The position numbers were made by a program, and so were the translations under genes. A stretch of DNA of 64,000 bases, taken from the NCBI RefSeq assembly GCF_026626745.1, contig NZ_JAPNJW010000002.1, positions 1,382,151 to 1,446,150 on the forward strand, in the 5' to 3' direction. The stretch is from Nannocystis sp. RBIL2 (GTDB taxonomy: Bacteria > Myxococcota_A > Polyangia > Nannocystales > Nannocystaceae). Of this stretch, positions 3,751 to 64,000 are shown one piece after another; positions within the stretch are counted from its first letter, which is position 1, and the number at the start of each line of letters is the position of its first letter. The notes under the pieces were generated by a model. It saw only the letters and a list, made by a program, of their open reading frames with translations. It searched no databases and was not told the DNA's origin.

Positions 3751-5616
3751 TCAGCCTCCGCGCGCCTCGTACTCGAGCGCCCCCGCCGTGACCACCTCGC
3801 CGGCCCGCGCCAGGGAGAAGCGGACGCTCGTCCCGCGGACCTCGAGCCGCAGCACCAGCGCGTCGCCCGGCGCGATCGGCCGGGTGAACTTCAGCCGCGT
3901 CGCCCGCCGCAGCGGCCCCAGCTCCGGCCGCAGCGCCGCCACCTGCGGCACCACCAGCGCGGTCAGCTGCGCCACCCCCGGCAGCACCGGCAGGGCGTCG
4001 AAGTGCCCGCGGAAGAACGCCAGGTCGACCGGCACCCCCACCTCGACCTCGTGCACCGACGACCCGCCCTCTTCGCGCAGCGTATGCCCGCGCAGCGCGA
4101 ACGCCGACGCCCCCGGGCCACCTGTCCCCGCGGACATGTCCCGTGAGCCACTCAGCCCCGATCCCGCGCTCGGTGCGTCCGTCGCCGAACTTACGGACAT
4201 GTCCCTCGGGCCACCCGCCGCGACTTCCTCTTCGCCCGCGAGCCCGAGCAGCGCGTGCAGCTTGCGCCGCGTCAGCTTGCCGCTCGGCTCGCGCGGCAGC
4301 GCCGGCACCACCTTGATCCGCCGCGGCACCACCACCTGGTCGAACCACGGCAACAGCGCCCGGCGCAGCTCGGCCACCAGCTCGCCGGCGTCGCGCCCGC
4401 CCTCGCGCGCGACCACGGCGGCCACCAGCTCGTGCCCGCGGGCGCCCGGCGACTCGACCGCCACCACCGCGGCGTCGGCCACCGCGGGCAGCGCCAGCAG
4501 CCGCTGCTCGACCTCGGCCACCGCCACTCGCTTGCCGGCGATCTTCACCACCCCGTCGAGCCGCCCGCGCAGGTGGAACCCGCCGCGCGCGTCGACCTCG
4601 ACGCGATCCTCGCACGGGTACGGCACCGGCGCGTCCGGCGCCAAGAACGGCGAGCGCAGCAGCAGCCGGCCCTCGGCCGCCACCTCGACAGTCACTCCCG
4701 GCAGCGGCGTCCAGGCTGGCTCCGGGGACATGTCCCTTAAAACATCCTCGTGCCGCCGCCAGCCGATCCCGCCGGTCTCCGACGAGCCGTACACCTCGGT
4801 CACCTGCAGGCCCAGCTTCGTCAGCAGCTCGTCGGCGGTCGCCCGTGGCAACGGCGCGCCCGACGAGAACACCCGCGACAGCGGCGGCAGGTCGCCGCGC
4901 GTCAGCACCGTCAGGCCGCGCAGGTGCGCCGGCGTGCTGACCAGCACCGTCGCCGCCACCTGCCGCGCCGCCCGGGCCACCGTCTCGGCGTGCAGCGGCG
5001 TCTCGCGGGCGAACGCCGCCCCCGCGGCCAGCGGCGCCAGGATCCCGAACAGCAGCCCGTAGAGGTGGTACGGCGGCACCGTCGCCAGCGCCACCTCCCC
5101 GGCCCGCAGGGCGAACGTGGCCGCCAGCGCCTGCGCCTCGCCGAGCAGCTGCGCGGCCGTCTTGGCGCACGGCTGGTGGTCGCCGGTGCTGCCCGAGGTG
5201 TACACGACCGCCAGCCGGCGATCGGCCGCCAGCGCTTCGGGCCATGTCGGATCGGCCATGTCCCCTGAAACATGTTCCGAGAGCCACTCGCGGACGTCCT
5301 GCGCGTCGGCCAGGTCGGAGTCGTGCAGCAGCGCGACCACCGACGGCCGCCCGGCCAGCTCGCGCACGGCCGCCGGCTGGGCGTTGGGCGGCAGCGCGAC
5401 CGCGTGGCCGCGCAGCCACGCCGCCAGGGTCGTCACCGCCAGGTGATAGCGGTCGCCGCACACCACCAGCACCTCGCTGCCCGGCGCCGGCGCCGGCAGC
5501 CGCGCCGCGATGCCCCTCGCGTCGCGCATGAGCTCGCCGGCCGTGCGCGCGCCGGCCTCGCCGACGGCGACGGGCGCCACGGGATCGGTGTGGACGAGCG
5601 GGACGAACGACTTCAT
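3751..5616 (-). CDS. AMP-dependent synthetase/ligase fused to a C-terminal FabZ/ApeP-like hotdog dehydratase domain
   Basis: Part of ORF 3751..6216. Motifs: VVYTSGSTGDHQPC and YGSSETGG (adenylate-forming core); the C-terminal ~110 aa carry FFRGHFDALPVLPGVAQL (hotdog). Start at ATG 5616 (MKSFVPLVH) gives an ATGA overlap with the upstream gene stop. Confidence 0.85.
   Translation of the reverse strand: MKSFVPLVHTDPVAPVAVGEAGARTAGELMRDARGIAARLPAPAPGSEVLVVCGDRYHLAVTTLAAWLRGHAVALPPNAQPAAVRELAGRPSVVALLHDSDLADAQDVREWLSEHVSGDMADPTWPEALAADRRLAVVYTSGSTGDHQPCAKTAAQLLGEAQALAATFALRAGEVALATVPPYHLYGLLFGILAPLAAGAAFARETPLHAETVARAARQVAATVLVSTPAHLRGLTVLTRGDLPPLSRVFSSGAPLPRATADELLTKLGLQVTEVYGSSETGGIGWRRHEDVLRDMSPEPAWTPLPGVTVEVAAEGRLLLRSPFLAPDAPVPYPCEDRVEVDARGGFHLRGRLDGVVKIAGKRVAVAEVEQRLLALPAVADAAVVAVESPGARGHELVAAVVAREGGRDAGELVAELRRALLPWFDQVVVPRRIKVVPALPREPSGKLTRRKLHALLGLAGEEEVAAGGPRDMSVSSATDAPSAGSGLSGSRDMSAGTGGPGASAFALRGHTLREEGGSSVHEVEVGVPVDLAFFRGHFDALPVLPGVAQLTALVVPQVAALRPELGPLRRATRLKFTRPIAPGDALVLRLEVRGTSVRFSLARAGEVVTAGALEYEARGG
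5243..5284. repeat. 14-bp-period CATGT(C/T)C array (3 units) inside the ligase CDS
   Basis: CATG at 5243, 5257 and 5271 (gccATGTCgg, gccATGTCCcc, aaCATGTTCcg). 42 bp equals 14 codons. Confidence 0.7.
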
Positions 5617-10528: not shown

Positions 10529-11167
10529 TCACTGGACCACGATCGTCACCTCGAACGGCGAGGCCTTGCGCGTGCCCGCGACCGTCCAGCGGTCGAGCGT
10601 GCGCAGCTGCGAGTACGCGCGCAGCAACGCCTCCATGTCGCCCACCTCTTGCCCGGCCACGGTGCGCACCAGGTCGCCATTTTTAAAACCCAGCAGCGCC
10701 AGCGGCGACTGGGAGCGGATCGCGAACAGCTTGAAGCCGACAGCCTTGCCGTCCTCGGTCACCGGCATGAGGCGCACCAGGCGGGCCATGTGTTCGGGCG
10801 CCGCCATGAGGGCATCGATCTCGCTGCGCTTCACCACGCAGGTCCCGTCGGCGCACGTCGGCGTCAGCGTCGCCTCGCCTGCGGGCGCGGCCTCGGGCGC
10901 TGCGTCGGTCGGCGGCGCCGGCGGGGCGCCGCCGGCCTCCAGCGGCGGAGACCGGCTGACCTCGCACAGCACCCGGTCGGCCCGCGCCTTCGCCAGCTCG
11001 GCGGTCAGCGACTCGATCCGCTGCCCCTGCTCCTTGACCAGCGCCGCAGTCGCCGCCAGCTCCTCCCGCATTGCCGCCAGCTCCCTCTCCTTCGCGGGGT
11101 CGCACCCGCCCAGCAGCAGCCCCAGCAGCATCCACGCCTCGATCCGTCGCCCCGGCATCGACGCCAC
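10529..11167 (-). CDS. Lipoprotein with coiled-coil and C-terminal PDZ-like domain (GspC-like)
   Basis: 212 aa; lipobox LLLGGC; C-terminus GFKLFAIRSQSPLALLGFKNGDLVRTVAGQEV resembles the PDZ domain of type II secretion protein C. Confidence 0.7.
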   Translation of the reverse strand: MASMPGRRIEAWMLLGLLLGGCDPAKERELAAMREELAATAALVKEQGQRIESLTAELAKARADRVLCEVSRSPPLEAGGAPPAPPTDAAPEAAPAGEATLTPTCADGTCVVKRSEIDALMAAPEHMARLVRLMPVTEDGKAVGFKLFAIRSQSPLALLGFKNGDLVRTVAGQEVGDMEALLRAYSQLRTLDRWTVAGTRKASPFEVTIVVQ

Positions 11168-11213
11168 TTCAACACGTCCGCCCCGGCCGCGACAAGCGCT
11201 ACAGTCCCTGCGC

Positions 11214-11429
11214 GTGACCTTGCCCGCCGAGCCCCGCGAGCCGCTGCTCCTGGCCCTCCGCCGCGCCGACCCGCTCGCCTTCCGCCGCGAGGTGCGGGCG
11301 GTCCTGGCAGCCCAGTGCAGCGTGAGCGCCGGCGCCCGGGCCCTCGGCGTGCGCGAGGCGACCCTGCGCGACCTGCTGGCCGACGACGCCGAGCTGGCCC
11401 GCGGCCTCGACCTCGACGACTGGCCCTGA
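11214..11429 (+). CDS. Small hypothetical protein (71 aa)
   Basis: The tail of ORF 10491..11429 from GTG 11214 (VTLPAEPREPLLLALRR...GARALGVREATLRDLLADDAELARGLDLDDWP). Its codon bias matches neighbouring genes, but no family was recognised. Confidence 0.3.
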   Translation: MTLPAEPREPLLLALRRADPLAFRREVRAVLAAQCSVSAGARALGVREATLRDLLADDAELARGLDLDDWP

Positions 11430-11444
11430 GGACAGGCTCAAATG

Positions 11445-11505
11445 AACATGACCGTAGAGGCATGTTCCATCGAGCATGTCCATGACACCATGTCGCACAC
11501 GTGAC
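11445..11505. repeat. 14-bp-period CATG array (4-5 units), intergenic
   Basis: CATG at 11447, 11461, 11475 and 11489 (aaCATGacc, ggCATGTTCc, agCATGTCCa, acCATGTCgc), followed by CACGTG near 11500. Confidence 0.75.
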
Positions 11506-11535
11506 ATCGCCCCCGCCGCGTGCCAGACTCGCCGC

Positions 11536-11961
11536 GTGCTGCAGCCCGTCGTCATCAGCGAAGCCGAGCTCGACCGCCGCCACGGCACCTTCGCCCGGCT
11601 CGCCTCGGGCGGCCGCTACGGCTGCGCCTGCGCCGTCTACGACGGCGACGTCACGATCGACGGCGACGGCTGGCTGGACGACGAGCACTGGTCGCAGCTG
11701 CAGCTCGCCGCCGCCCCCGACGACATCGGCACCATCGTCGTCACCGGCAGCCTGACGGTGCGGGGCGACCTCTGCGTGTCCGACCGGCTGATGTGCGCCG
11801 TCGTCCTCGGCGACCTGGTCGCCCGCGAGCTCGCCATCTTCGAGACCGAGTTCTACGTCGGCGGCGACCTGCGGGTCGAACGCCTGCGCGACCGCGACGA
11901 GTACCTCACGGTCGCCGGCGCGCGCTCGGTCGCCCACCCCGACGTCGATCCCGACGAATGA
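11536..11961 (+). CDS. Hypothetical protein
   Basis: ORF 11476..11961. Start moved to GTG 11536 (VLQPVVISEAELDRRHG) to clear the repeat array. No family recognised. Confidence 0.5.
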   Translation: MLQPVVISEAELDRRHGTFARLASGGRYGCACAVYDGDVTIDGDGWLDDEHWSQLQLAAAPDDIGTIVVTGSLTVRGDLCVSDRLMCAVVLGDLVARELAIFETEFYVGGDLRVERLRDRDEYLTVAGARSVAHPDVDPDE

Positions 11962-18547: not shown

Positions 18548-19681
18548 TCACTTCGGCTGCAGCTCGCGGAGCCGCTCCTCCAGCTCCGCCTTCAGCTCCG
18601 GGTCCGTCGCCTTGGCGATCTGCTGCTCGATCAGCTTGACCTGGACCACCCGCAGCGCGTCCTCGGCCGGCACCGCGATGTCGGGTTGCACGCCCACCCC
18701 CTCCCAGTTCGTCTTCGAGACTGGGTTTATCGCCCGGCCCGTCGGCACGAACGCCCGGAAGTGGTCGCCGAGGCGGACCATGTCGCCCGGGTTCGCCCCG
18801 CCCCACGTCACCTCGCCGACGATCGTCGCCCGCTTCAGGTTCTTCAGGTTGTACGCGAACTCCTCCGCCGCCGACCCCGTGCGCGGGCTCGTCAGCACGT
18901 AGACCTCGCGGCCCACGTAGGACTCGCCCGGCACCGGCGACGTCCAGAACTGGCGCGTCTCGTTGGCTGGCCGGAAGTACAGGTCGTTCAGGTGGACCGG
19001 CTCGTCGAACAGATAGCTGCACAGGTACGCCACCATCTCCGGCGATCCGCCCCCGTTGCGGCGCAGGTCGACGATCAGCGCGTCGGTCTCCGCCAAAAAC
19101 GCCATCGCCGCCGACGCCGCCTCGAACCCGCGGCCGGGGAACGCGAACCCGCGCACTTCCAGGTAGCCGATGTTGCCGGGCAGCCGCTCGACCTTCTCGA
19201 ACCCCCCGTTCATGCGGCGCGAGAAGTCCTCGAAGCGAGCCAGCTCCTCGGCCGACGGCTTCCCCTCGGTCTGCTGCGGCGGCAGCGTCTCCTTGCTGAA
19301 GCGGACGTGGAAGTGCGCGTCGCGCAGCACCTCGTTGATGTCGTTCGTCAGCGTCGTCGCCAGCGCGTGGCCCGTCGTGATCTTGTCGTACTCGCCGCGC
19401 TTGCGGCGGGCGCGGATCACCTTGGCCACCTCGTTGGCCTTGGCCGGGAACACGTACTTCGCCGTCAGTTCGCGCGCCAGCGCCTCGACCGCCTCCTCGC
19501 GCTCCGCCGCGGTGATCGGCCCGTCCGGCCCTCTCGGCGGCGGCGCCTTCGGCACTGCCATCTGCGGCCCGCCGGAGCTCGGCGGCGTCGCGGCCGGACT
19601 GGCGACCGCCGCCTTCGCGCAGCCGATCGTGTGCAACGTGGATAGCGCCAACCAACCGAGGATCACTGTCGACAATCGCAT
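18548..19681 (-). CDS. S41 family peptidase (lipoprotein)
   Basis: 377 aa; signal/lipobox LSTLHTIGC; GNIGYLEVRGF, VDLRRNGGGS, LTSPRTGSAAEEF. Confidence 0.85.
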   Translation of the reverse strand: MRLSTVILGWLALSTLHTIGCAKAAVASPAATPPSSGGPQMAVPKAPPPRGPDGPITAAEREEAVEALARELTAKYVFPAKANEVAKVIRARRKRGEYDKITTGHALATTLTNDINEVLRDAHFHVRFSKETLPPQQTEGKPSAEELARFEDFSRRMNGGFEKVERLPGNIGYLEVRGFAFPGRGFEAASAAMAFLAETDALIVDLRRNGGGSPEMVAYLCSYLFDEPVHLNDLYFRPANETRQFWTSPVPGESYVGREVYVLTSPRTGSAAEEFAYNLKNLKRATIVGEVTWGGANPGDMVRLGDHFRAFVPTGRAINPVSKTNWEGVGVQPDIAVPAEDALRVVQVKLIEQQIAKATDPELKAELEERLRELQPK

Positions 19682-19702: not shown

Positions 19703-20275
19703 TCACTTCGCGCCGCGCGTCCGCGCCCGTGCCGGCGCCGGCTTGCCCCGCGCCGGCTTGCCCCGCGTCGGCTTCGCCCGTGCCGACCGCTTCGCCGCGC
19801 GTCGAGCCTCCGCCGCCGGCGCGACCACGCTCTTCAGCAGCAGCGCCGCCATGCGCCGGACCTCGACCTCGACCTTCGCCCGCTCGCCGAGCTCGGCGAC
19901 GCTCAGGCTGAACGGCAGGAACGCATTGGTCGCCTTCACCAGAGTCGACGCAGTCGCCGCCGCGTCCTCGACCTCGAACCGCCCGCACGCCACGCCGGCC
20001 GCCAGCACCCCGGCCACCAGCGCCACCTCGCGCTCCATGTGAGCTGTCCTTCGGGCCATGTACCCCGGCCGCACCGCCTCGAACAGCTCGTCGAGGCTCT
20101 GGCGGTACGCGCTGACGCTGTCGAACCGCCGCAGCACCCGCTCGATCAGCACCGCGCGCAGCACCTCGGCCGGATCGCCGCCCCCGCTCGCCAGCGCCAC
20201 CAGCCGCGCGTACGTCTGCGCCACCACCCGGTCGATCGACGACAGCCCGACCTCTTCCTTGCTCGGGAAGTACCA
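19703..20275 (-). pseudogene. TetR-family regulator, 5'-truncated (HTH domain missing)
   Basis: ORF 19703..20389. Recognisable TetR sequence starts at WYFPSKEE (the end of the HTH domain) at 20275 and continues as the ligand-binding domain. Everything upstream is the 3' end of the integrase gene in another frame. Confidence 0.7.
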
Positions 20276-20276
20276 T

Positions 20277-21326
20277 TTAGTTCGTAAACGTACGTTTAGA
20301 CCGCATCTGGACCACGTTGCCAAGCTTTGCCTGACCTTTGCCAAGTCGAGAGGACCGGGCCTCCAGCGCGGCGATGGCTTGCTTGGCAAGCGCGAGCTTG
20401 TTCACATGGACATAATACAGCAGGGTCGTCTGAAGATCCGAGTGACGGGCAAGAGCCTGAAGCGCGTACGGGCTCTCGCCGGCCTCGGCCAGGTGGGTGA
20501 GCACGGAGTGACGGATCCGGTGCGGCCCGCGGACCTCCACACCGGCCCGGACCTGGATCTTGTTCACGATCCACGCCAGCGCTTGATCCGTGGTGTGAGC
20601 GCGCCGTCCCCTCTTGGGCAGGAAGACGAACTTCACGTCGGGCCGCGTCGCCAGAAGCTCCCGGAGAGCTTCCTTCAGACGGGACGTCAGCGGGATCGTC
20701 CCGACCTCGCCCTTAGGGCTGTCCTGGAAGACACAATGGGAGACGTTCCGCTGGATCGTCATGCCCACGTCCCAGTTGATGTCCGACCACTGGAGGCCGG
20801 CGCATTCACCAATGCGCATGGCGCCGTCCACCAGCAGCAACATCAGGACTCGCTCTTCCAGGTCCTCGGCCGCATCGATCTGCTGCTCAAGCTCCGCCTC
20901 GGTGTAAACGTCCACCTTCTTTTTCTCGGCCTTGGGCCACTTGAGCGACGGAATCGCATGCATGGCTGGGAGCTTCCCCCGCTCCTTCGCCCAGTTAAGG
21001 CAAGCGGTAAGTTTCTGCTCCGCCAGCTCGATTGAACTTCGGACGCATCCACGCTCCATCATCCGCGAGCGAAGGTTCGCAAGATGCTCTTTCGCGATTT
21101 GGTCCGCACGGACCTTGCCCAGCAACGGGCCGAGGTCTTTGCGGTAAATGCTACGGTATCCGGATTGAGTGGAAGCTTTCTGATGGCGAATGTGCTCGTT
21201 GTCGAAGTCGATCCACAATTCGGCCAGCTTGGGGACTCTTTTCTCAGGTTCTTTCTTGTCCTCCTTCTTCTTCTCCGTCGCGTCTGCCTTGGGCGCGCCT
21301 TTGCACGCTTCCAAGAACATCTCCAT
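20277..21326 (-). CDS. Tyrosine recombinase / phage-type integrase
   Basis: 349 aa; the C-terminus GPHRIRHSVLTHLAEAG...LARHSDLQTTLLYYVH carries HxxR and the catalytic Tyr context. It has more A/T-ending codons than the flanks. The stop codon (20277-20279) sits exactly at the junction with the TetR remnant. Confidence 0.9.
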   Translation of the reverse strand: MEMFLEACKGAPKADATEKKKEDKKEPEKRVPKLAELWIDFDNEHIRHQKASTQSGYRSIYRKDLGPLLGKVRADQIAKEHLANLRSRMMERGCVRSSIELAEQKLTACLNWAKERGKLPAMHAIPSLKWPKAEKKKVDVYTEAELEQQIDAAEDLEERVLMLLLVDGAMRIGECAGLQWSDINWDVGMTIQRNVSHCVFQDSPKGEVGTIPLTSRLKEALRELLATRPDVKFVFLPKRGRRAHTTDQALAWIVNKIQVRAGVEVRGPHRIRHSVLTHLAEAGESPYALQALARHSDLQTTLLYYVHVNKLALAKQAIAALEARSSRLGKGQAKLGNVVQMRSKRTFTN

Positions 21327-22827
21327 CCCACGTTCCTCCGGACCTTACTGTACTGCTGCATCATCTCGTCGGTCAGCCGTCGCTGGCATTCCAGGTGCTC
21401 GGCGAACATCATCGAGCCGAGTTTCAGGATGGCCGCCATGGGCGCGAGCACCGGCTCGGCGGGGCGGACATCGGGGCCGCCGGCGGGCGACGGACCAGCG
21501 CTGGACACGTTTTCGCCACCGAGCTGCCCGATCGTGCCATCGATCCAGAGCCGCTTGCCCGGATAGAGTCGAAGGAACAGCTCTACCGACTCCTGCAACT
21601 TGTCCTTTGGAACATGCACTTCAAGACACGCGCGATCCTGAGCGTCGAGCAACCTCACCCCATGCACGGCAGCAACCTCCGCCCGAACACTGGCACTCGC
21701 GAACGGGTGCGCAAGTGCCTAATTTCGACCACCAACGCCAGTTGGGTGTCGCTTGAGCATCTTCGAGCGGGACCGTGGAGACGCGGTTCATCGCAATTTT
21801 GTGTACGCATTCCTGTGTCGATCGATGGACAGCGCTGCGCCGATTGCTGCACGCATTGCTCCAGCAGAGCTGTACGCGTTGCTTGGCGCATCGCCGCTGG
21901 ACGCTGTATACGTTGCAGTGCACAGTCACCTCGCGCGTGCTAGCCTGAGCCGTCGATGAGGGCGATGGCGTTTGACGAGCAAGGGGGGATGCGGGACGTG
22001 CTCGACATGTTCAAGCACTGGCACGAGTTCTGTCGTGCCACGGCCAAGGGCTTGGCGAGCACCCCGGATGACGAGCTCTTCGTAGTCCGGCAGCTCGGGC
22101 TCCCGAGCAGCCGGGTGCTCGCCGTCGTCGATCCCGAAACCCGGCACAGCCCGTCCCCTCGATCGCCCCCCTCACCACCGCCACCCTGGGCGGCATGTTG
22201 ATAACCTTGCTCGTCTCCCTGTTCGCCCGGGCTTCCTGCGACTTCCAGCTCGCCGGCCCGGTCAGCGAGGCCAGCGAGGCCCCGAGGCTCGTGCAGGCCG
22301 CGCGCAGCGCTCCGTGATCATCGCCGGGCGCCTCGGCTCCCCAGGTCCGAAGCGGGCCACGAGCGCGGGGCGCCTCGCGTGCCAGGTCGGCGGTACATCG
22401 ACCAGTGTGATGCGCGAGCGAGGTATGGACCTCGTCGTGATTACCCGGCGAGCGGCGCTTCCGACAGACTGCCGAAGCCCCGCTTCGCCGAGCTCGACGC
22501 CGAAAGTTCGGCCAGCGGGGCGCACGCCGGTGCGCGTGTCCTGGAAGCCAACCAGCCGACTGGAGCACATCCGTCACGTCCGCCCGCGGGCAGGAACTCC
22601 AGCGACGGGCAGTTCGCTCCGGTGGCCCCGGGGCGCCACGACCCCGGAACGGCGCCACGCGCGAGACAGCCAATCATGGGCCTCGCATCTCGGTGCGCAA
22701 GTACCACCGCCGCCACCGCCACGCATCGGCTGCAGCGGCACCAACGGCTCCCGCCCGTTTCCAGCGGCCCAATCGTGCGCAGGCGGGTTCACCGTCGACG
22801 AGGGGCCTCGACGTTGTACGCCCGCGG

Positions 22828-56879: not shown

Positions 56880-58118
56880 ATGACGACGAGCCCCAAGATG
56901 AACGTTCTGCTGGTCGCGCCTATCCTCGGTGGCGGGGTGGAAGCGGCGCTGGAAGTCCTGATCCGAGGCCTCGAGTCACGGGGGATCCAGTGCGGCGTCC
57001 ATGCCACGAGCGGAGCCAGTGAGCGACTGGAGAAGCACTGCTCGCTGGGAGTACACCTTGGAGCATCGCGGCCTGTCGTGGTGGATCTGCTGCGAGGTCG
57101 CTACGACCTCGTCCACGCCACTTCCCTGTGCGTTCAATCCCCGACCATGGCGCGCCTGCTCCGCTGGGCGCACGCGCTGGTGCCCACGGTCTGCACAAGT
57201 CACGGGAGCGTGGAGATCGACGTCTCGTCCGTCCCTTTCGACGCCTTCACGGGGGTCTCGTCCAGCGCGGCAGCGGCTCTGCTTCTCCCGCCTGGAGAGA
57301 CCGTGCACGTGGTGCTGAGCGGCCCGGACACGGAGCACTGCCAGCCCGGCCCGGCTAGCCCCTCGGCCCGGCCGAGGTTGCTCTGGGTCGGGCGCACGCT
57401 GGACAGCGACTGGCAGTCGAAGGATGTCCATGGCCTGCTTTATCTGGTCGCCGAAGGAGGGTTGCGTGGATTCGACGTGATCCTGCTCGACGCCGAGGAC
57501 CGGAGAGAGGCCCTGGGTCTCTCGGACTGGCTGGCTGGTCGCGTCGACTACCGCGCCGGGCGGTACTCCAAGGCAGAGATGGCGGCGCTTTATCGTGAGA
57601 CCGCCGCATCCGGCGGCGCGCTGCTCTCCACCTCGCGCGACGAAGGTCTACCCATGGTAATGTTGGAAGCGTGGGCTTGCGGCTGTCCTGTCATCGTCCC
57701 GCGCCGGGCCGGGTTCGATCTGGTTCAGGACGGCGTGAACGGCCTCGTCTTCGAGCGCTCGGAGTCGTTCGCAGGTATTCGTCGTTGCCTCGACGCCCTG
57801 CGAGATCCGGAGATGCGCGCGCGTATCGTGGCCCAGGGCCTCGCAACCATCGCGGGGACGTGCAATCCAACTGCGATGGTCAGCGGATACGAGCAGGTGT
57901 ACCGGCGCCTCCTGGCGGAAGGCCGCCGCTCCCGGCTTCGCGCCGCCTGGCGCGACGTGCTGGCCCTCCCAGGCGAACTCCTTCGCGCCATCCCTCACGC
58001 GCGCTGGGCAGGGTGGGCCGTCAGCAAGCGCTGCAGCGCGATCCGCCCCTTCGCGCGGCCACGTGGGGCGGAACCGTCGCCGCGCCGCAGCGCGAGCGAG
58101 ATCAAGCCCGAGGGATGA
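56880..58118 (+). CDS. Family 4 (GT-B) glycosyltransferase
   Basis: Part of ORF 56757..58118 from ATG 56880. LSTSRDEGLPMVMLEAWACGCPVIVPRRAGFDLVQDGVNGLVFE (EX7E-type motif). Confidence 0.85.
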   Translation: MTTSPKMNVLLVAPILGGGVEAALEVLIRGLESRGIQCGVHATSGASERLEKHCSLGVHLGASRPVVVDLLRGRYDLVHATSLCVQSPTMARLLRWAHALVPTVCTSHGSVEIDVSSVPFDAFTGVSSSAAAALLLPPGETVHVVLSGPDTEHCQPGPASPSARPRLLWVGRTLDSDWQSKDVHGLLYLVAEGGLRGFDVILLDAEDRREALGLSDWLAGRVDYRAGRYSKAEMAALYRETAASGGALLSTSRDEGLPMVMLEAWACGCPVIVPRRAGFDLVQDGVNGLVFERSESFAGIRRCLDALRDPEMRARIVAQGLATIAGTCNPTAMVSGYEQVYRRLLAEGRRSRLRAAWRDVLALPGELLRAIPHARWAGWAVSKRCSAIRPFARPRGAEPSPRRSASEIKPEG

Positions 58119-60602: not shown

Positions 60603-60688
60603 CGACGGGCGGCGTGTCCGCAGTCCCGCGGGCAGGCTCACGCGGGCTCACGCGGGCACACCGCTCCGCTCGCCGTGCCCCGTCGTGA

Positions 60689-61014
60689 CGGGCAGGTCGA
60701 CTTGCGCAAGGGCTTCGAGGGCCTCAGCGCGCTCGTGCAGCAGGCGCTGGGCAAGGATCCGCTGTCGGGGGCGTTGTACCTGTTCACGATTCGGCGGCGG
60801 ACGACGGCGAAGGTGCTGCCCCGCCTGGCGATGAGCCGGCGAAGAAGAAGACGGGGCACGGATGTTCGCTACCACGGACAGGAACGTGAGACGCCCGGCG
60901 AAAGGGGAAAGGGGCGCTCCGGAAACCGCGGCCTCATGTCGAGCGAGGCGCATGGCGCGGACGAGAGCGAACCGCCAGCGGACGCTGACCACGACGTATT
61001 CGTGGCGGCCGACC
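60689..61014 (+). mobile_element. IS66-orf2(tnpB)-like fragment repeat, copy 2
   Basis: Same sequence as 44230-44616, minus the 63-bp insertion. Confidence 0.65.
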
Positions 61015-62322
61015 CTTCACCGTCGCTCTCACTCCCGCTGTCCGTGGCCGTCGTGGCTCGCCCGGCCTTACCTGATCGCCTACCTCGGTGACGAGGACCG
61101 AGCCGACCGCTACCTCGACCAAAAGCAGGCGCACTTCGCCTGCGTTGGCTATCCCCGCACACTCGAGGACCGGGCGCATGTTCTCTGCGACTCGGTCCTT
61201 CCGGTCGACGATACCTTCAGCAAACCCGGTATCCAGGGCAACCCTGCCGCAGCCAGGGAACACCATGCCGGCTGGAGCGCGGTGTTCGCCGGTGAACCTC
61301 CACCACCCGGGGCCGACCCGGCGTACTTCTTCGTGCACGAAGCCCTCGAGGCATGCCTGCCCCACGCATCCCCCGGCCTCGTCGAACGCCTCCGCAGTGG
61401 CTGGCAAGACGTCGCGGATGCCTTTCTTGACGAGGCCATCCACAAGACGAGCGAGGTCGGCGCTGTGCTCACCGGCGCAGGAGCGCCCGGCCGCCCCGCC
61501 TCGCCGAGCTGCTCGGCGCGCTCGCGCGGGTGATGGGCGACGGGGTGGTGCTGCGCGCGGTGACGACGCAGGGCACAGTCACCGCGAGCATGCCGCCGGC
61601 TGCGGTGGACAACCGGTTGCCACGCGCATCGCTGCCGCCGCTCGCGCGCCGCGAGGGGCGCGAGCTGTTCGACGTCCTGCGAGAGGCGTGGGCCCTCGCC
61701 ACGCGGGGTGCTCTCGCAGATGGACCGATCGAGTGCAGCGCGCTCGCGCGGGACACCGGCACGCTGGCCGCCGGGCCGCACGAGCCGCCGCCTGTCCCGT
61801 GCGAGCCCTTCGTGCTCCCGCCCGATCCGGCGCTGACTGACGCGCTCGCGGACATCGACACGAGCAACGAGGCCGGGCTCGCGGCGGTGCTCGTCCATCC
61901 CGACCCGCGGGCACGCGTCGCGCTGATCGACGACTGGGGCGACGTGCTCGGCCACGCGCCGACGTGGGCGCGGCTGCTGGCCGATCCGTCCCCCGCCGTG
62001 CGCGCTGCCGCCGTGCGCTGCAGCGACTGCCCGCTGCCGATGCCAGCGAGCGAGCGTCACCCCGGCGTCCGTGCGTCGTCAGAACAGGCGCACCCGTGGG
62101 AACTGGCGATGCTCGCGGACCCTTCCGGAGTCCGCCGTGCGCGCCGCGGTCGCGAGGAATCTCAAGGCTCCGTCCCGCGTGCTCTGCGAGCTCGCGCGAG
62201 ACCCGGTGGCCGAGGTCCGTCGCGCCGTGGCGTGGCCGCTCTGCCTGGCCGCGTTCTCGGGGTACCGCGGCGACGCGGCGGCCCGACGCGCCCTCGAGGC
62301 GCTGGCACGGGTGCGGCGGCCC
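61015..62322 (+). pseudogene. HEAT/LRV-repeat protein gene, disrupted (IS fragments at both ends, at least two frameshifts)
   Basis: Three frames must be joined: 60862..61533 (WLARPYLIAYLGDEDRADRYL...), 61530..62417 (LAELLGALARVMGDG... read through in the +2 frame; LVHPDPRARVALI, LLADPSPAVRAAAV) and 62071.. (SAVRAAVARNLKAPSRVLCELARDPVAEVRRAVA). Confidence 0.4.
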
Positions 62323-62924: not shown

Positions 62925-64000
62925 ATGACCTCGCCCCCTCCGTACACCATCACGGAGTCTCTCTCCCACGGCGGCAGAGCCGTTCTCTATCGCGCGATCA
63001 GGAACGCTGATGGCTGCGCGGTCGTCCTCAAGGTGCTCGATCCGCGGCGCCGCCGACCGCAGGACCTCGCGCAGCTCAAGCTCGAATACGAGATCGGAAC
63101 GCGGCTCGCCTCCCCGGCCGTCGTCAGGCCGCTCGCCCTCGAGACGTACCAGGGCATGCCGGCCCTCGTCCTGGAAGACTTCGGCGGAGAGGCACTCGAC
63201 GCCTCGCTCGGGGCACCGATGGCGGTGGACCGCTTTCTCTCGCTCGCGCTCGGCATCGCGGGGGCGGTCGCGGACGTTCACCGGCAGGGCGTCGTCCACA
63301 GGGACCTCAAGCCCGCCAACATCCTCGTCAACCCCGCGACGGGTGAGGTCAAGCTCGCCGACTTCGGGCTCGCGTCCCGCCTCCCGCGCGAGCATCAGCC
63401 CGTGTGCCTCATCGAGGGCTCGTTGCCCTACCTGTCGCCCGAACAGACGGGGCGAATGAACCGCGCGATCGACAACCGCGCCGATCTCTACTCTCTGGGC
63501 GTCACGTTCTATCAGATGCTCACCGGAGAGCTCCCCTTCGAGGCGAAGGATCCGGTGGAGTGGGTCCATTGTCACGTCGCCCGTGTTCCTCCGTCCCCTG
63601 CCGAGCTCGTCTCCGAAGTGCCCGAGCCCCTCGCGCGCGTCGTGCTGAAGCTCCTCGCCAAGATGCCCGAGGATCGCTACCAGAGCGCCGGCGGTCTCTC
63701 GGCCGATCTGGAGCGCTGTCGGATCCAGTGGCAGGCGTGCGGGCGGATCGAGCCGTTCCCGCTCGGTCGGGACGATGTTTCGGACCGCTTGCTGATCCCG
63801 CACAAGCTCTACGGGCGCGAGCGGGAGACCGCCGCGCTGCTGGCCGCTTTCGACGCCGTGGCCGCGACGGGCGCGCCGGCGCTGGTGACGGTGTCCGGCT
63901 ATTCGGGGGTAGGCAAGAGCGCCCTGGTCAATGCCTTGCACAAACCGATCGTGGAGAAGCGGGGATATTTCATCGCCGGCAAGTTTGACCAGTACAAGCG
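62925..64000 (+). CDS. Ser/Thr protein kinase fused to AAA/P-loop ATPase domain (partial, continues beyond window)
   Basis: Not in the ORF track (no stop in the window). ATG 62925: MTSPPPYTITESLSHGGRAVLYRA...; HRDLKPANILV, DFGLAS, PYLSPEQ; then LYGRERE...VSGYSGVGKSALV (Walker A). Confidence 0.9.
   Translation, partial: MTSPPPYTITESLSHGGRAVLYRAIRNADGCAVVLKVLDPRRRRPQDLAQLKLEYEIGTRLASPAVVRPLALETYQGMPALVLEDFGGEALDASLGAPMAVDRFLSLALGIAGAVADVHRQGVVHRDLKPANILVNPATGEVKLADFGLASRLPREHQPVCLIEGSLPYLSPEQTGRMNRAIDNRADLYSLGVTFYQMLTGELPFEAKDPVEWVHCHVARVPPSPAELVSEVPEPLARVVLKLLAKMPEDRYQSAGGLSADLERCRIQWQACGRIEPFPLGRDDVSDRLLIPHKLYGRERETAALLAAFDAVAATGAPALVTVSGYSGVGKSALVNALHKPIVEKRGYFIAGKFDQYK

Follow-up and report, generated by a model that had tools for sequence, protein, structure and literature searches.

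The window analysed here, a 64-kb stretch of DNA from Nannocystis sp. RBIL2, holds a junction at which a shortened tyrosine integrase gene (int') ends 1 nt before the frame of a shortened TetR/AcrR gene (TetR') opens, both on the minus strand. To the left of the junction lies a peptidase gene, and to its right lie two further gene stumps and, more distantly, insertion sequence fragments. The features are as follows.

18548 to 19681, minus strand: S41 peptidase gene (Peptidase_S41, E = 6.6e-22), directly downstream of TetR'
19703 to 20275, minus strand: TetR', the 3' part of a TetR/AcrR gene, with the ligand-binding/dimerisation domain and without about 47 codons (the HTH); the frame opens W-YFPSKEEVGLSSIDRVV, i.e., W-YFPSKEE
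20264 to 20285, minus strand: core-like overlap ACGAACTAAATGGTACTTCCCG, consisting of the last two int codons, the stop codon, and 13 nt beyond; presumed hybrid att site
20277 to 21338, minus strand: int', the 3' 72% of a tyrosine integrase gene, with core-binding and catalytic domains
21326 to 20277, minus strand: the int' open reading frame, 349 aa, with a TAA stop at 20279-20277
21334 to 21667, minus strand: geneX', an orphan gene stump that keeps ~120 of ~181 codons, counted from the start, with an out-of-frame fusion to int' at ~21338
21956 to 22148, plus strand: geneY', a stump with the opening ~60 codons of an orphan gene that encodes at least 382 aa
45887 to 46384, minus strand: IS66-family fragment
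52582 to 53802, plus strand: IS66-family fragment
60603 to 61088, plus strand: IS66-family fragment

The junction between int' and TetR'

The C-terminal domain of TetR' is readily recognized (TetR_C_27, E = 1.3e-06, 28.9 bits against a cutoff of 26.1), and there is no profile match in TetR' to the N-terminal HTH, PF00440 (TetR_N). Five intact TetR/AcrR orthologues from N. pusilla, N. punicea, and N. exedens (P0001-P0005; 235 to 329 aa, 77 to 97% identity) all contain PF00440, and TetR' is 91 to 97% identical to the intact N. pusilla proteins of 243 to 245 aa. The tblastn alignment of P0002 starts at residue 48 and shows 96% identity over 157 aa. Since the orthologues are intact and have the HTH, the first ~47 residues are missing in the window. 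The peptide across the junction reads ...LRTKWYFPSKEEVGLSS, compared to ...GVSRRT[IV]YMYFPSKEEVGLSS in the intact orthologues; out-of-frame integrase sequence stands in place of the ~47 N-terminal TetR residues, and the sole in-frame start of TetR' is a TTG within int. An earlier reading made from the sequence alone had described a TetR gene recognizable only from WYFPSKEE (20275), with the TAA of int (20279-20277) adjoining its frame. Its coordinates and description are correct, and the intact TetR gene that it proposed to look for in related strains is represented by the five Nannocystis orthologues, in which the HTH is present.

Synteny ends at the same place. By blastn, the window is colinear leftwards with four reference Nannocystis genomes, namely N. 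pusilla L001 (GCA_049060185) and L005 (Na p29), N. punicea FL3 (L002/L006), and N. exedens DSM 71 (L004), at 88 to 95% identity, with an abrupt end at 20273-20285. In L001, position 10133 corresponds to window position 20285, and from there the two are 94% identical and colinear for ~10.4 kb leftwards, to ~9.9 kb in the window. In L005, in which TetR is on the minus strand, the homologous stretch stops at position 4169, and the first 132 nt of the gene lie directly past it. GC content also falls at the junction, from ~0.74 to 0.60-0.62, and because the synteny break and the GC fall lie at the same point, the junction is not due to chance. No part of L001 1-10132, which includes the TetR 5' end and 10 kb upstream of it, was found by blastn anywhere in the 64-kb window, and tblastn detected no TetR N-terminus there. 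A degenerate 26-mer scan of genome contigs recovered intact TetR genes only, in N. exedens, N. pusilla Na p29, and N. punicea, from a collection that holds one genome per species and therefore has no bearing on the source strain, RBIL2 and ILAH1 being N. pusilla subspecies. In the metagenome scan for the TetR 5' half, the sole match was an unrelated TetR. The 18-mer at the junction is single copy in the window, even allowing up to 3 mismatches, and the window contains no relevant direct repeat, no tRNA or tmRNA gene, and no Rfam match. The TetR 5' half and a matching att repeat had been reported as missing from the window, and a search for a direct repeat downstream of the junction had been proposed; the tblastn and 18-mer searches both came back empty, in agreement.

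Could the junction be an artifact, with an integrase contig mis-joined to the TetR locus? Myxobacterial genomes, with their high GC and many repeats, are difficult to assemble, and the assembly of the isolate ILAH1 is a 41-contig draft (PMC10435759), which counts in favor of a chimera. However, the identical integrase (P0121) and M36 peptidase (P0178) entries name two isolates, ILAH1 and RBIL2, which are described as N. pusilla subspecies (PMC10435759). In addition, an independent JGI metagenome contig of 2127 nt (L010) has the same int-TetR arrangement; it is 93% identical to window positions 21338 to 19569, and about 60 nt around the junction are identical. The same junction in an independent contig means that it is real and old, neither an assembly artifact nor recent, and a chimera is barely credible.

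The DNA at the junction resembles both of its neighbors. Homology to the DNA of L007, a Logan contig that carries a full-length relative of int, passes the int stop codon and ends at 20264, and homology to the intact TetR gene begins at 20285 (L001), so the two overlap by 22 nt. In alignment A1, the counterpart of this overlap in the intact TetR gene is ACGATCTACAT-GTACTTCCCG, and the counterpart in the 3' flank of the L007 int is ACGGCTTAATTGATACTTCACG; TACTTC is common to the window, the intact TetR site, and L007. The intact TetR site contains the palindrome TACATGTA, followed by CTTCCCG. Similarity to intact TetR begins within the codons T-N-stop, 8 nt before the stop codon ends, and 10 of the final 12 nt on the int side agree with intact TetR. 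A TAA-NTGRTACTTCMCG motif follows the ORF in both the window int' and the relatives P0122 and P0123, and the L003/L007 relatives, whose insertions lie at another locus, also have TACTTC after the int stop. The C-terminus of the integrase (..VVQMRSKRTFTN) is equal in length to that of the relatives (..VVQMPRRRSSTA), which means that at most the last 2 to 3 codons lie within the exchanged region.

Altogether, the alignments support the idea that this 22-nt segment, which resembles the target and the element side alike, behaves like an att core or a hybrid attL/attR site. Site-specific integration at the extreme 3' end of int appears to be the best reading, with a candidate attP at that point; the overlap of TetR-site and int-flank homologies bears out the earlier proposal of integration into the TetR coding sequence with crossover at the 3' extremity of int. 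It could be objected that the junction is simply the end point of an accidental deletion or illegitimate recombination that happened to fall at the int stop codon. Two clearly illegitimate joints, at 21338 and 22148, do lie within the same 1.9 kb, and the window lacks a second att copy. However, the break falls within a few nucleotides of where related int genes and their flanking homology end, the C-terminus of the integrase is full length, 10 of 12 nt on the int side agree with intact TetR, and TACTTC recurs after the stop codon in relatives at another locus. We therefore regard an accidental end point as very unlikely. If the junction is the product of site-specific integration, it yields both a candidate attB, ACGATCTACATGTACTTCCCG, and the core motif of an uncharacterized family of HTH_17-fused integrases of Nannocystis. 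The candidate attB may prove useful as a site-specific integration tool in these genetically intractable bacteria.

Integrase relatives and known systems

The int' reading frame is still open over 349 codons. Its catalytic domain matches PF00589 (E = 1.2e-24) over profile positions 4 to 170 of 172, and all catalytic residues are kept: in alignment A2, with P0121 among its sequences, the columns of RIGE, K, HRIRH, ARH, and YYVH are invariant. The product and P0121, a protein annotated in Nannocystis sp. ILAH1, are 100% identical. Full-length relatives include P0122 (441 aa, from L007) and P0123 (489 aa, from N. pusilla CP185339, L003), to which int' is 73 to 74% identical at the amino acid level across the common 350 residues. 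P0123 carries PF12728 (HTH_17, excisionase type); the relatives match phrog_66, and an N-terminal HTH_17 is found in many of them and a conserved arm-type segment in most. The window copy is without the first ~138 residues of these relatives, including the HTH_17 and the arm-type domain. With P0123 as the tblastn query, the window covers residues 135 to 488 only, the coding sequence for residues 1 to 134 is nowhere else in the window, and 7 codons before the int' ATG there is an in-frame TAA. The annotated integrase P0121 of the N. pusilla-group isolates RBIL2 and ILAH1 is thus a 5'-truncated remnant.

The metagenome contig L010 departs from the window exactly at 21338 and retains ~50 more int codons, which indicates that the truncation of int in the window was a later event. 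The L010 copy has a +1 frameshift in its catalytic domain, and int is therefore decaying in both lineages. Between int' and L010, dN/dS is 0.38, a value that is neither clearly neutral nor clearly constrained. For int' and TetR' compared to L010, L001, and L005, the range is 0.27 to 0.39, calculated from few substitutions, and neighboring genes give similar values. ILAH1 also has a second integrase paralogue, P0124 (343 aa, 65% identical), whose sequence starts at nearly the same residue as the window copy and is likewise without the HTH_17/arm N-terminus, so the shortened architecture occurs twice in one genome.

The HTH_17-fused integrases as a group (P0122, P0123, and P0126-P0159, from Nannocystis and metagenomes) have the same C-terminal tail length as the window copy. 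They differ in having the HTH_17/arm N-terminus and an upstream set of genes (~700 aa, ~430 aa, and ~430 aa), both of which are lacking in the window. In phage collections, we found no relative of P0123 in IMG/VR. A tblastn search of P0123 against 50,697 phage records gave 246 matching records, all below 60% identity, and no myxophage was among the listed matches.

The attB1 and attB2 sites of myxophage Mx8 are located at tRNA-Asp genes. Mx8 targets these sites using an attP inside the int coding sequence, and its integration creates a new int 3' end (PMC6070905). The sequence-only reading had drawn on Mx8 as a parallel, and there are indeed two likenesses: the host group is myxobacterial, and the crossover region touches the 3' end of int. 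However, Mx8 Int shows only superfamily-level similarity to the int' product and P0123, with 27 to 31% identity over ~130 aa (BLASTP E of about 1e-5 in a two-sequence comparison). Here, the insertion lies in a TetR gene, an HTH_17 domain is fused to the N-terminus of the relatives, and the overlap takes no more than those last int codons and leaves the C-terminus at its family length. With similarity at the superfamily level only, the Mx8 analogy is loose.

Integrase-adjacent att sites of prophages, integrative and conjugative elements (ICEs), and genomic islands offer a closer comparison. As in those systems, int is outermost and reads towards the junction, a short core is common to element and target, and a hybrid site is found at the int stop codon. 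The atypical GC and the later erosion into a pseudo-element are likewise seen in decayed remnants of prophages, ICEs, and islands. In contrast to the usual islands, the insertion lies inside a protein-coding gene (TetR codons ~44-50), not in a tRNA/tmRNA gene or at the 3' end of a gene, the disrupted gene is not restored by the element, and one junction survives. Still, the arrangement is the common one, with an integrase at the edge of the element and attP next to int, followed by erosion.

It is tempting to go further and suppose that this integrase subfamily recognizes the palindromic core (TACATGTA/TACTTC) in the conserved 'Y-x-Y-F-P-S-K-E' end of the TetR HTH, repeatedly knocking out TetR-family repressors and derepressing their operons, and that Int' has been domesticated. 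If so, the retained Int', catalytically complete and shortened at its N-terminus, would not be debris but a domesticated recombinase. We consider this a long shot. The relatives lie at other loci with no TetR beside them, which led us to reject TetR-specific targeting as unsupported. The ORF downstream of the L003/L007 int begins in frame with YFTSE, but neither Pfam (E up to 10) nor PDB sequences gave a TetR signal for it, and L008 and L009 adjoin an OmpA-like gene.

The foreign block and the DNA to its right

The low-GC foreign DNA extends from 20286 to ~22148 (1.86 kb) and is made up of three genes, all of them truncated; its breakpoints lie at ~21338 and ~22148. Beyond int', geneX' is a stump of a rare orphan gene: phmmer among 1.84 billion representatives found only P0298 (7e-34, query residues 1 to 113) and P0299, and no match was found in Pfam, NCBIfam, or PHROG. 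By tblastn, window positions 21667 to 21326 correspond to residues 1 to 120 of 181, and the listed 202-aa ORF at 21059 to 21667 is the geneX' stump read through into int. In the metagenome contigs L014-L016, geneY is the divergent neighbor of geneX, and both genes are complete there beyond the window stumps (geneY at least 382 aa). These contigs align by blastn to window positions 22147 to 22012, and BLASTP of geneY' gives 56% identity over 52 aa, with divergence after that. Homology and low GC both stop at ~22148, the right edge of the foreign block, and GC is at least 0.70 after ~22100. The segment 21339-22830 is not repeated in the window, and among the compared loci it matches only L014-L016. 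In the Logan contigs DRR438479/81/83, geneX is followed by 299-aa and 150-aa orphan genes, and geneX and its neighbors in L014 and L016 have no Pfam match.

The full-length integrase relatives are always preceded by a conserved set of large orphan genes of ~700, ~430, and ~430 aa, as seen in L003 (1269-9943, with a 1042-aa gene in addition), L007 (540-1841), L008 (53-4753), and L009 (3-4664). These partner genes have no match in Pfam, NCBIfam, or PHROG. Together with the integrase, they appear to make up an uncharacterized integrative element family in Nannocystis and soil metagenomes. The partner genes of L003, L007, and L008/L009 are absent from the window, and tblastx for element genes gave high-GC noise only.

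From 22.8 kb, the window contains ordinary myxobacterial genes, including an M36 peptidase, PAS-STAS, ECF sigma, Ser/Thr kinase, and jacalin lectin genes and a GSCFA/WcbI/glycosyltransferase group. Among these are the three IS66-family pieces, two of them C-terminal parts of a DDE transposase (profile positions 222 to 282 and 167 to 283 of 284) and one TnpB/Orf2. With no complete IS66 copy, the region is a graveyard of insertions, so the description 'mosaic of IS fragments and cargo' given by the earlier reading was broadly right. The M36 peptidase is 100% identical to an RBIL2 protein (P0178); the next best match is 76% identical and in another context, and no syntenic orthologue was found. 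The right-hand DNA is a strain-specific, IS66-littered plasticity zone, and the junction is its left border. Two smaller features were seen in this zone. A partial match to a terpene-synthase C-terminal domain (60835-61530, plus strand) lies directly beside the IS66 TnpB fragment, and a polysaccharide-type cluster with GSCFA, WcbI, and GT4 glycosyltransferase genes (54728-58115, plus strand) has lower GC (0.60-0.69).

The junction might instead be the left end of an intact, very large element or island of more than 43.7 kb, extending from 20286 past the end of the window, with the TetR 5' half and the other att site beyond position 64000. This would fit with the ancestral upstream flank being nowhere in the 43.7 kb to the right, with the strain specificity of the M36 peptidase, which is the first large right-hand gene, and with the IS66 debris, which marks accessory DNA. 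However, int is without its N-terminal 138 aa, int' runs at 21338 into an unrelated gene that is incomplete, and geneY' breaks off at 22148. In addition, GC returns to the host level after 22.1 kb, the right-hand genes are of ordinary myxobacterial types, and the genes that partner int in its relatives are missing here. What would mark an intact element, a second att copy in the window and complete gene content beside int, was not found, and we consider a large intact island unlikely. The picture implied by the earlier reading, of an element whose far end lies elsewhere, is likewise not supported, given a 5'-truncated int, 1.86 kb made up of three stumps, and absent partner genes.

Proposed history of the locus and the TetR-S41 operon

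Taking the evidence together, we put the probability at roughly three in four that the locus is the fossil of a site-specific integration whose element then decayed. In this history, an integrative element with a tyrosine integrase at one end would have recombined its attP, located at or just past the int stop codon and bearing a TACTTC core, with a similar short sequence inside a TetR/AcrR gene. The target would have been TetR codons ~44-50, which carry the palindrome and CTTCCCG described above. As the sequence comparisons show, the insertion split TetR and placed int directly against its 3' part. A deletion or illegitimate joint at ~21338 may then have fused geneX' to int', with loss of the N-terminal DNA-binding domains of the integrase, and geneY' would have been cut at a second breakpoint, ~22148. 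This neighborhood no longer contains the TetR 5' half, the remainder of the element, or 10 kb or more of the ancestral flank upstream. The breakpoints at ~21338 and ~22148 are evident in the comparisons with L010 and L014-L016, and we infer their order and whether they reflect deletion or rearrangement. The int' frame, still open and with every catalytic residue in place, weighs against decay. As it has neither a second att site nor an arm-binding or excisionase-like domain, the remnant presumably cannot excise. We read it as a fossil att junction from a decayed element of an uncharacterized Nannocystis integrase subfamily, and it is ordinary biology.

The order TetR-S41 with a short gap is also found in L001 and L002, making the S41 peptidase gene a conserved operon partner of TetR. 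TetR' is presumably non-functional as a DNA-binding repressor, as it should be unable to bind DNA, and the S41 peptidase gene would now be cut off from the native TetR promoter and upstream control region. Any expression of TetR' and S41 would then have to come from foreign or read-through promoters. This would leave the RBIL2/ILAH1 lineage with a TetR-S41 peptidase operon lacking its native control region. Beyond that, the finding matters little outside annotation, for which it shows that the adjacent 'TetR' has no DNA-binding domain.

Some variation within the operon was also apparent. The S41 peptidase is encoded by one 377-aa ORF in both the window and N. punicea; following the intact TetR gene in L001, positions 10750-11765 contain two overlapping ORFs (190 and 157 aa), so the L001 copy is probably frameshifted. 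The basic C-terminal tail of TetR varies in length among the orthologues (235 to 329 aa). Compared with L010, a 15-nt unit, CGCGGGGCAAGCCGG, has been duplicated in tandem in the tail of TetR' (window positions ~19752-19781), so that the peptide reads ...RGKPARGKPA....
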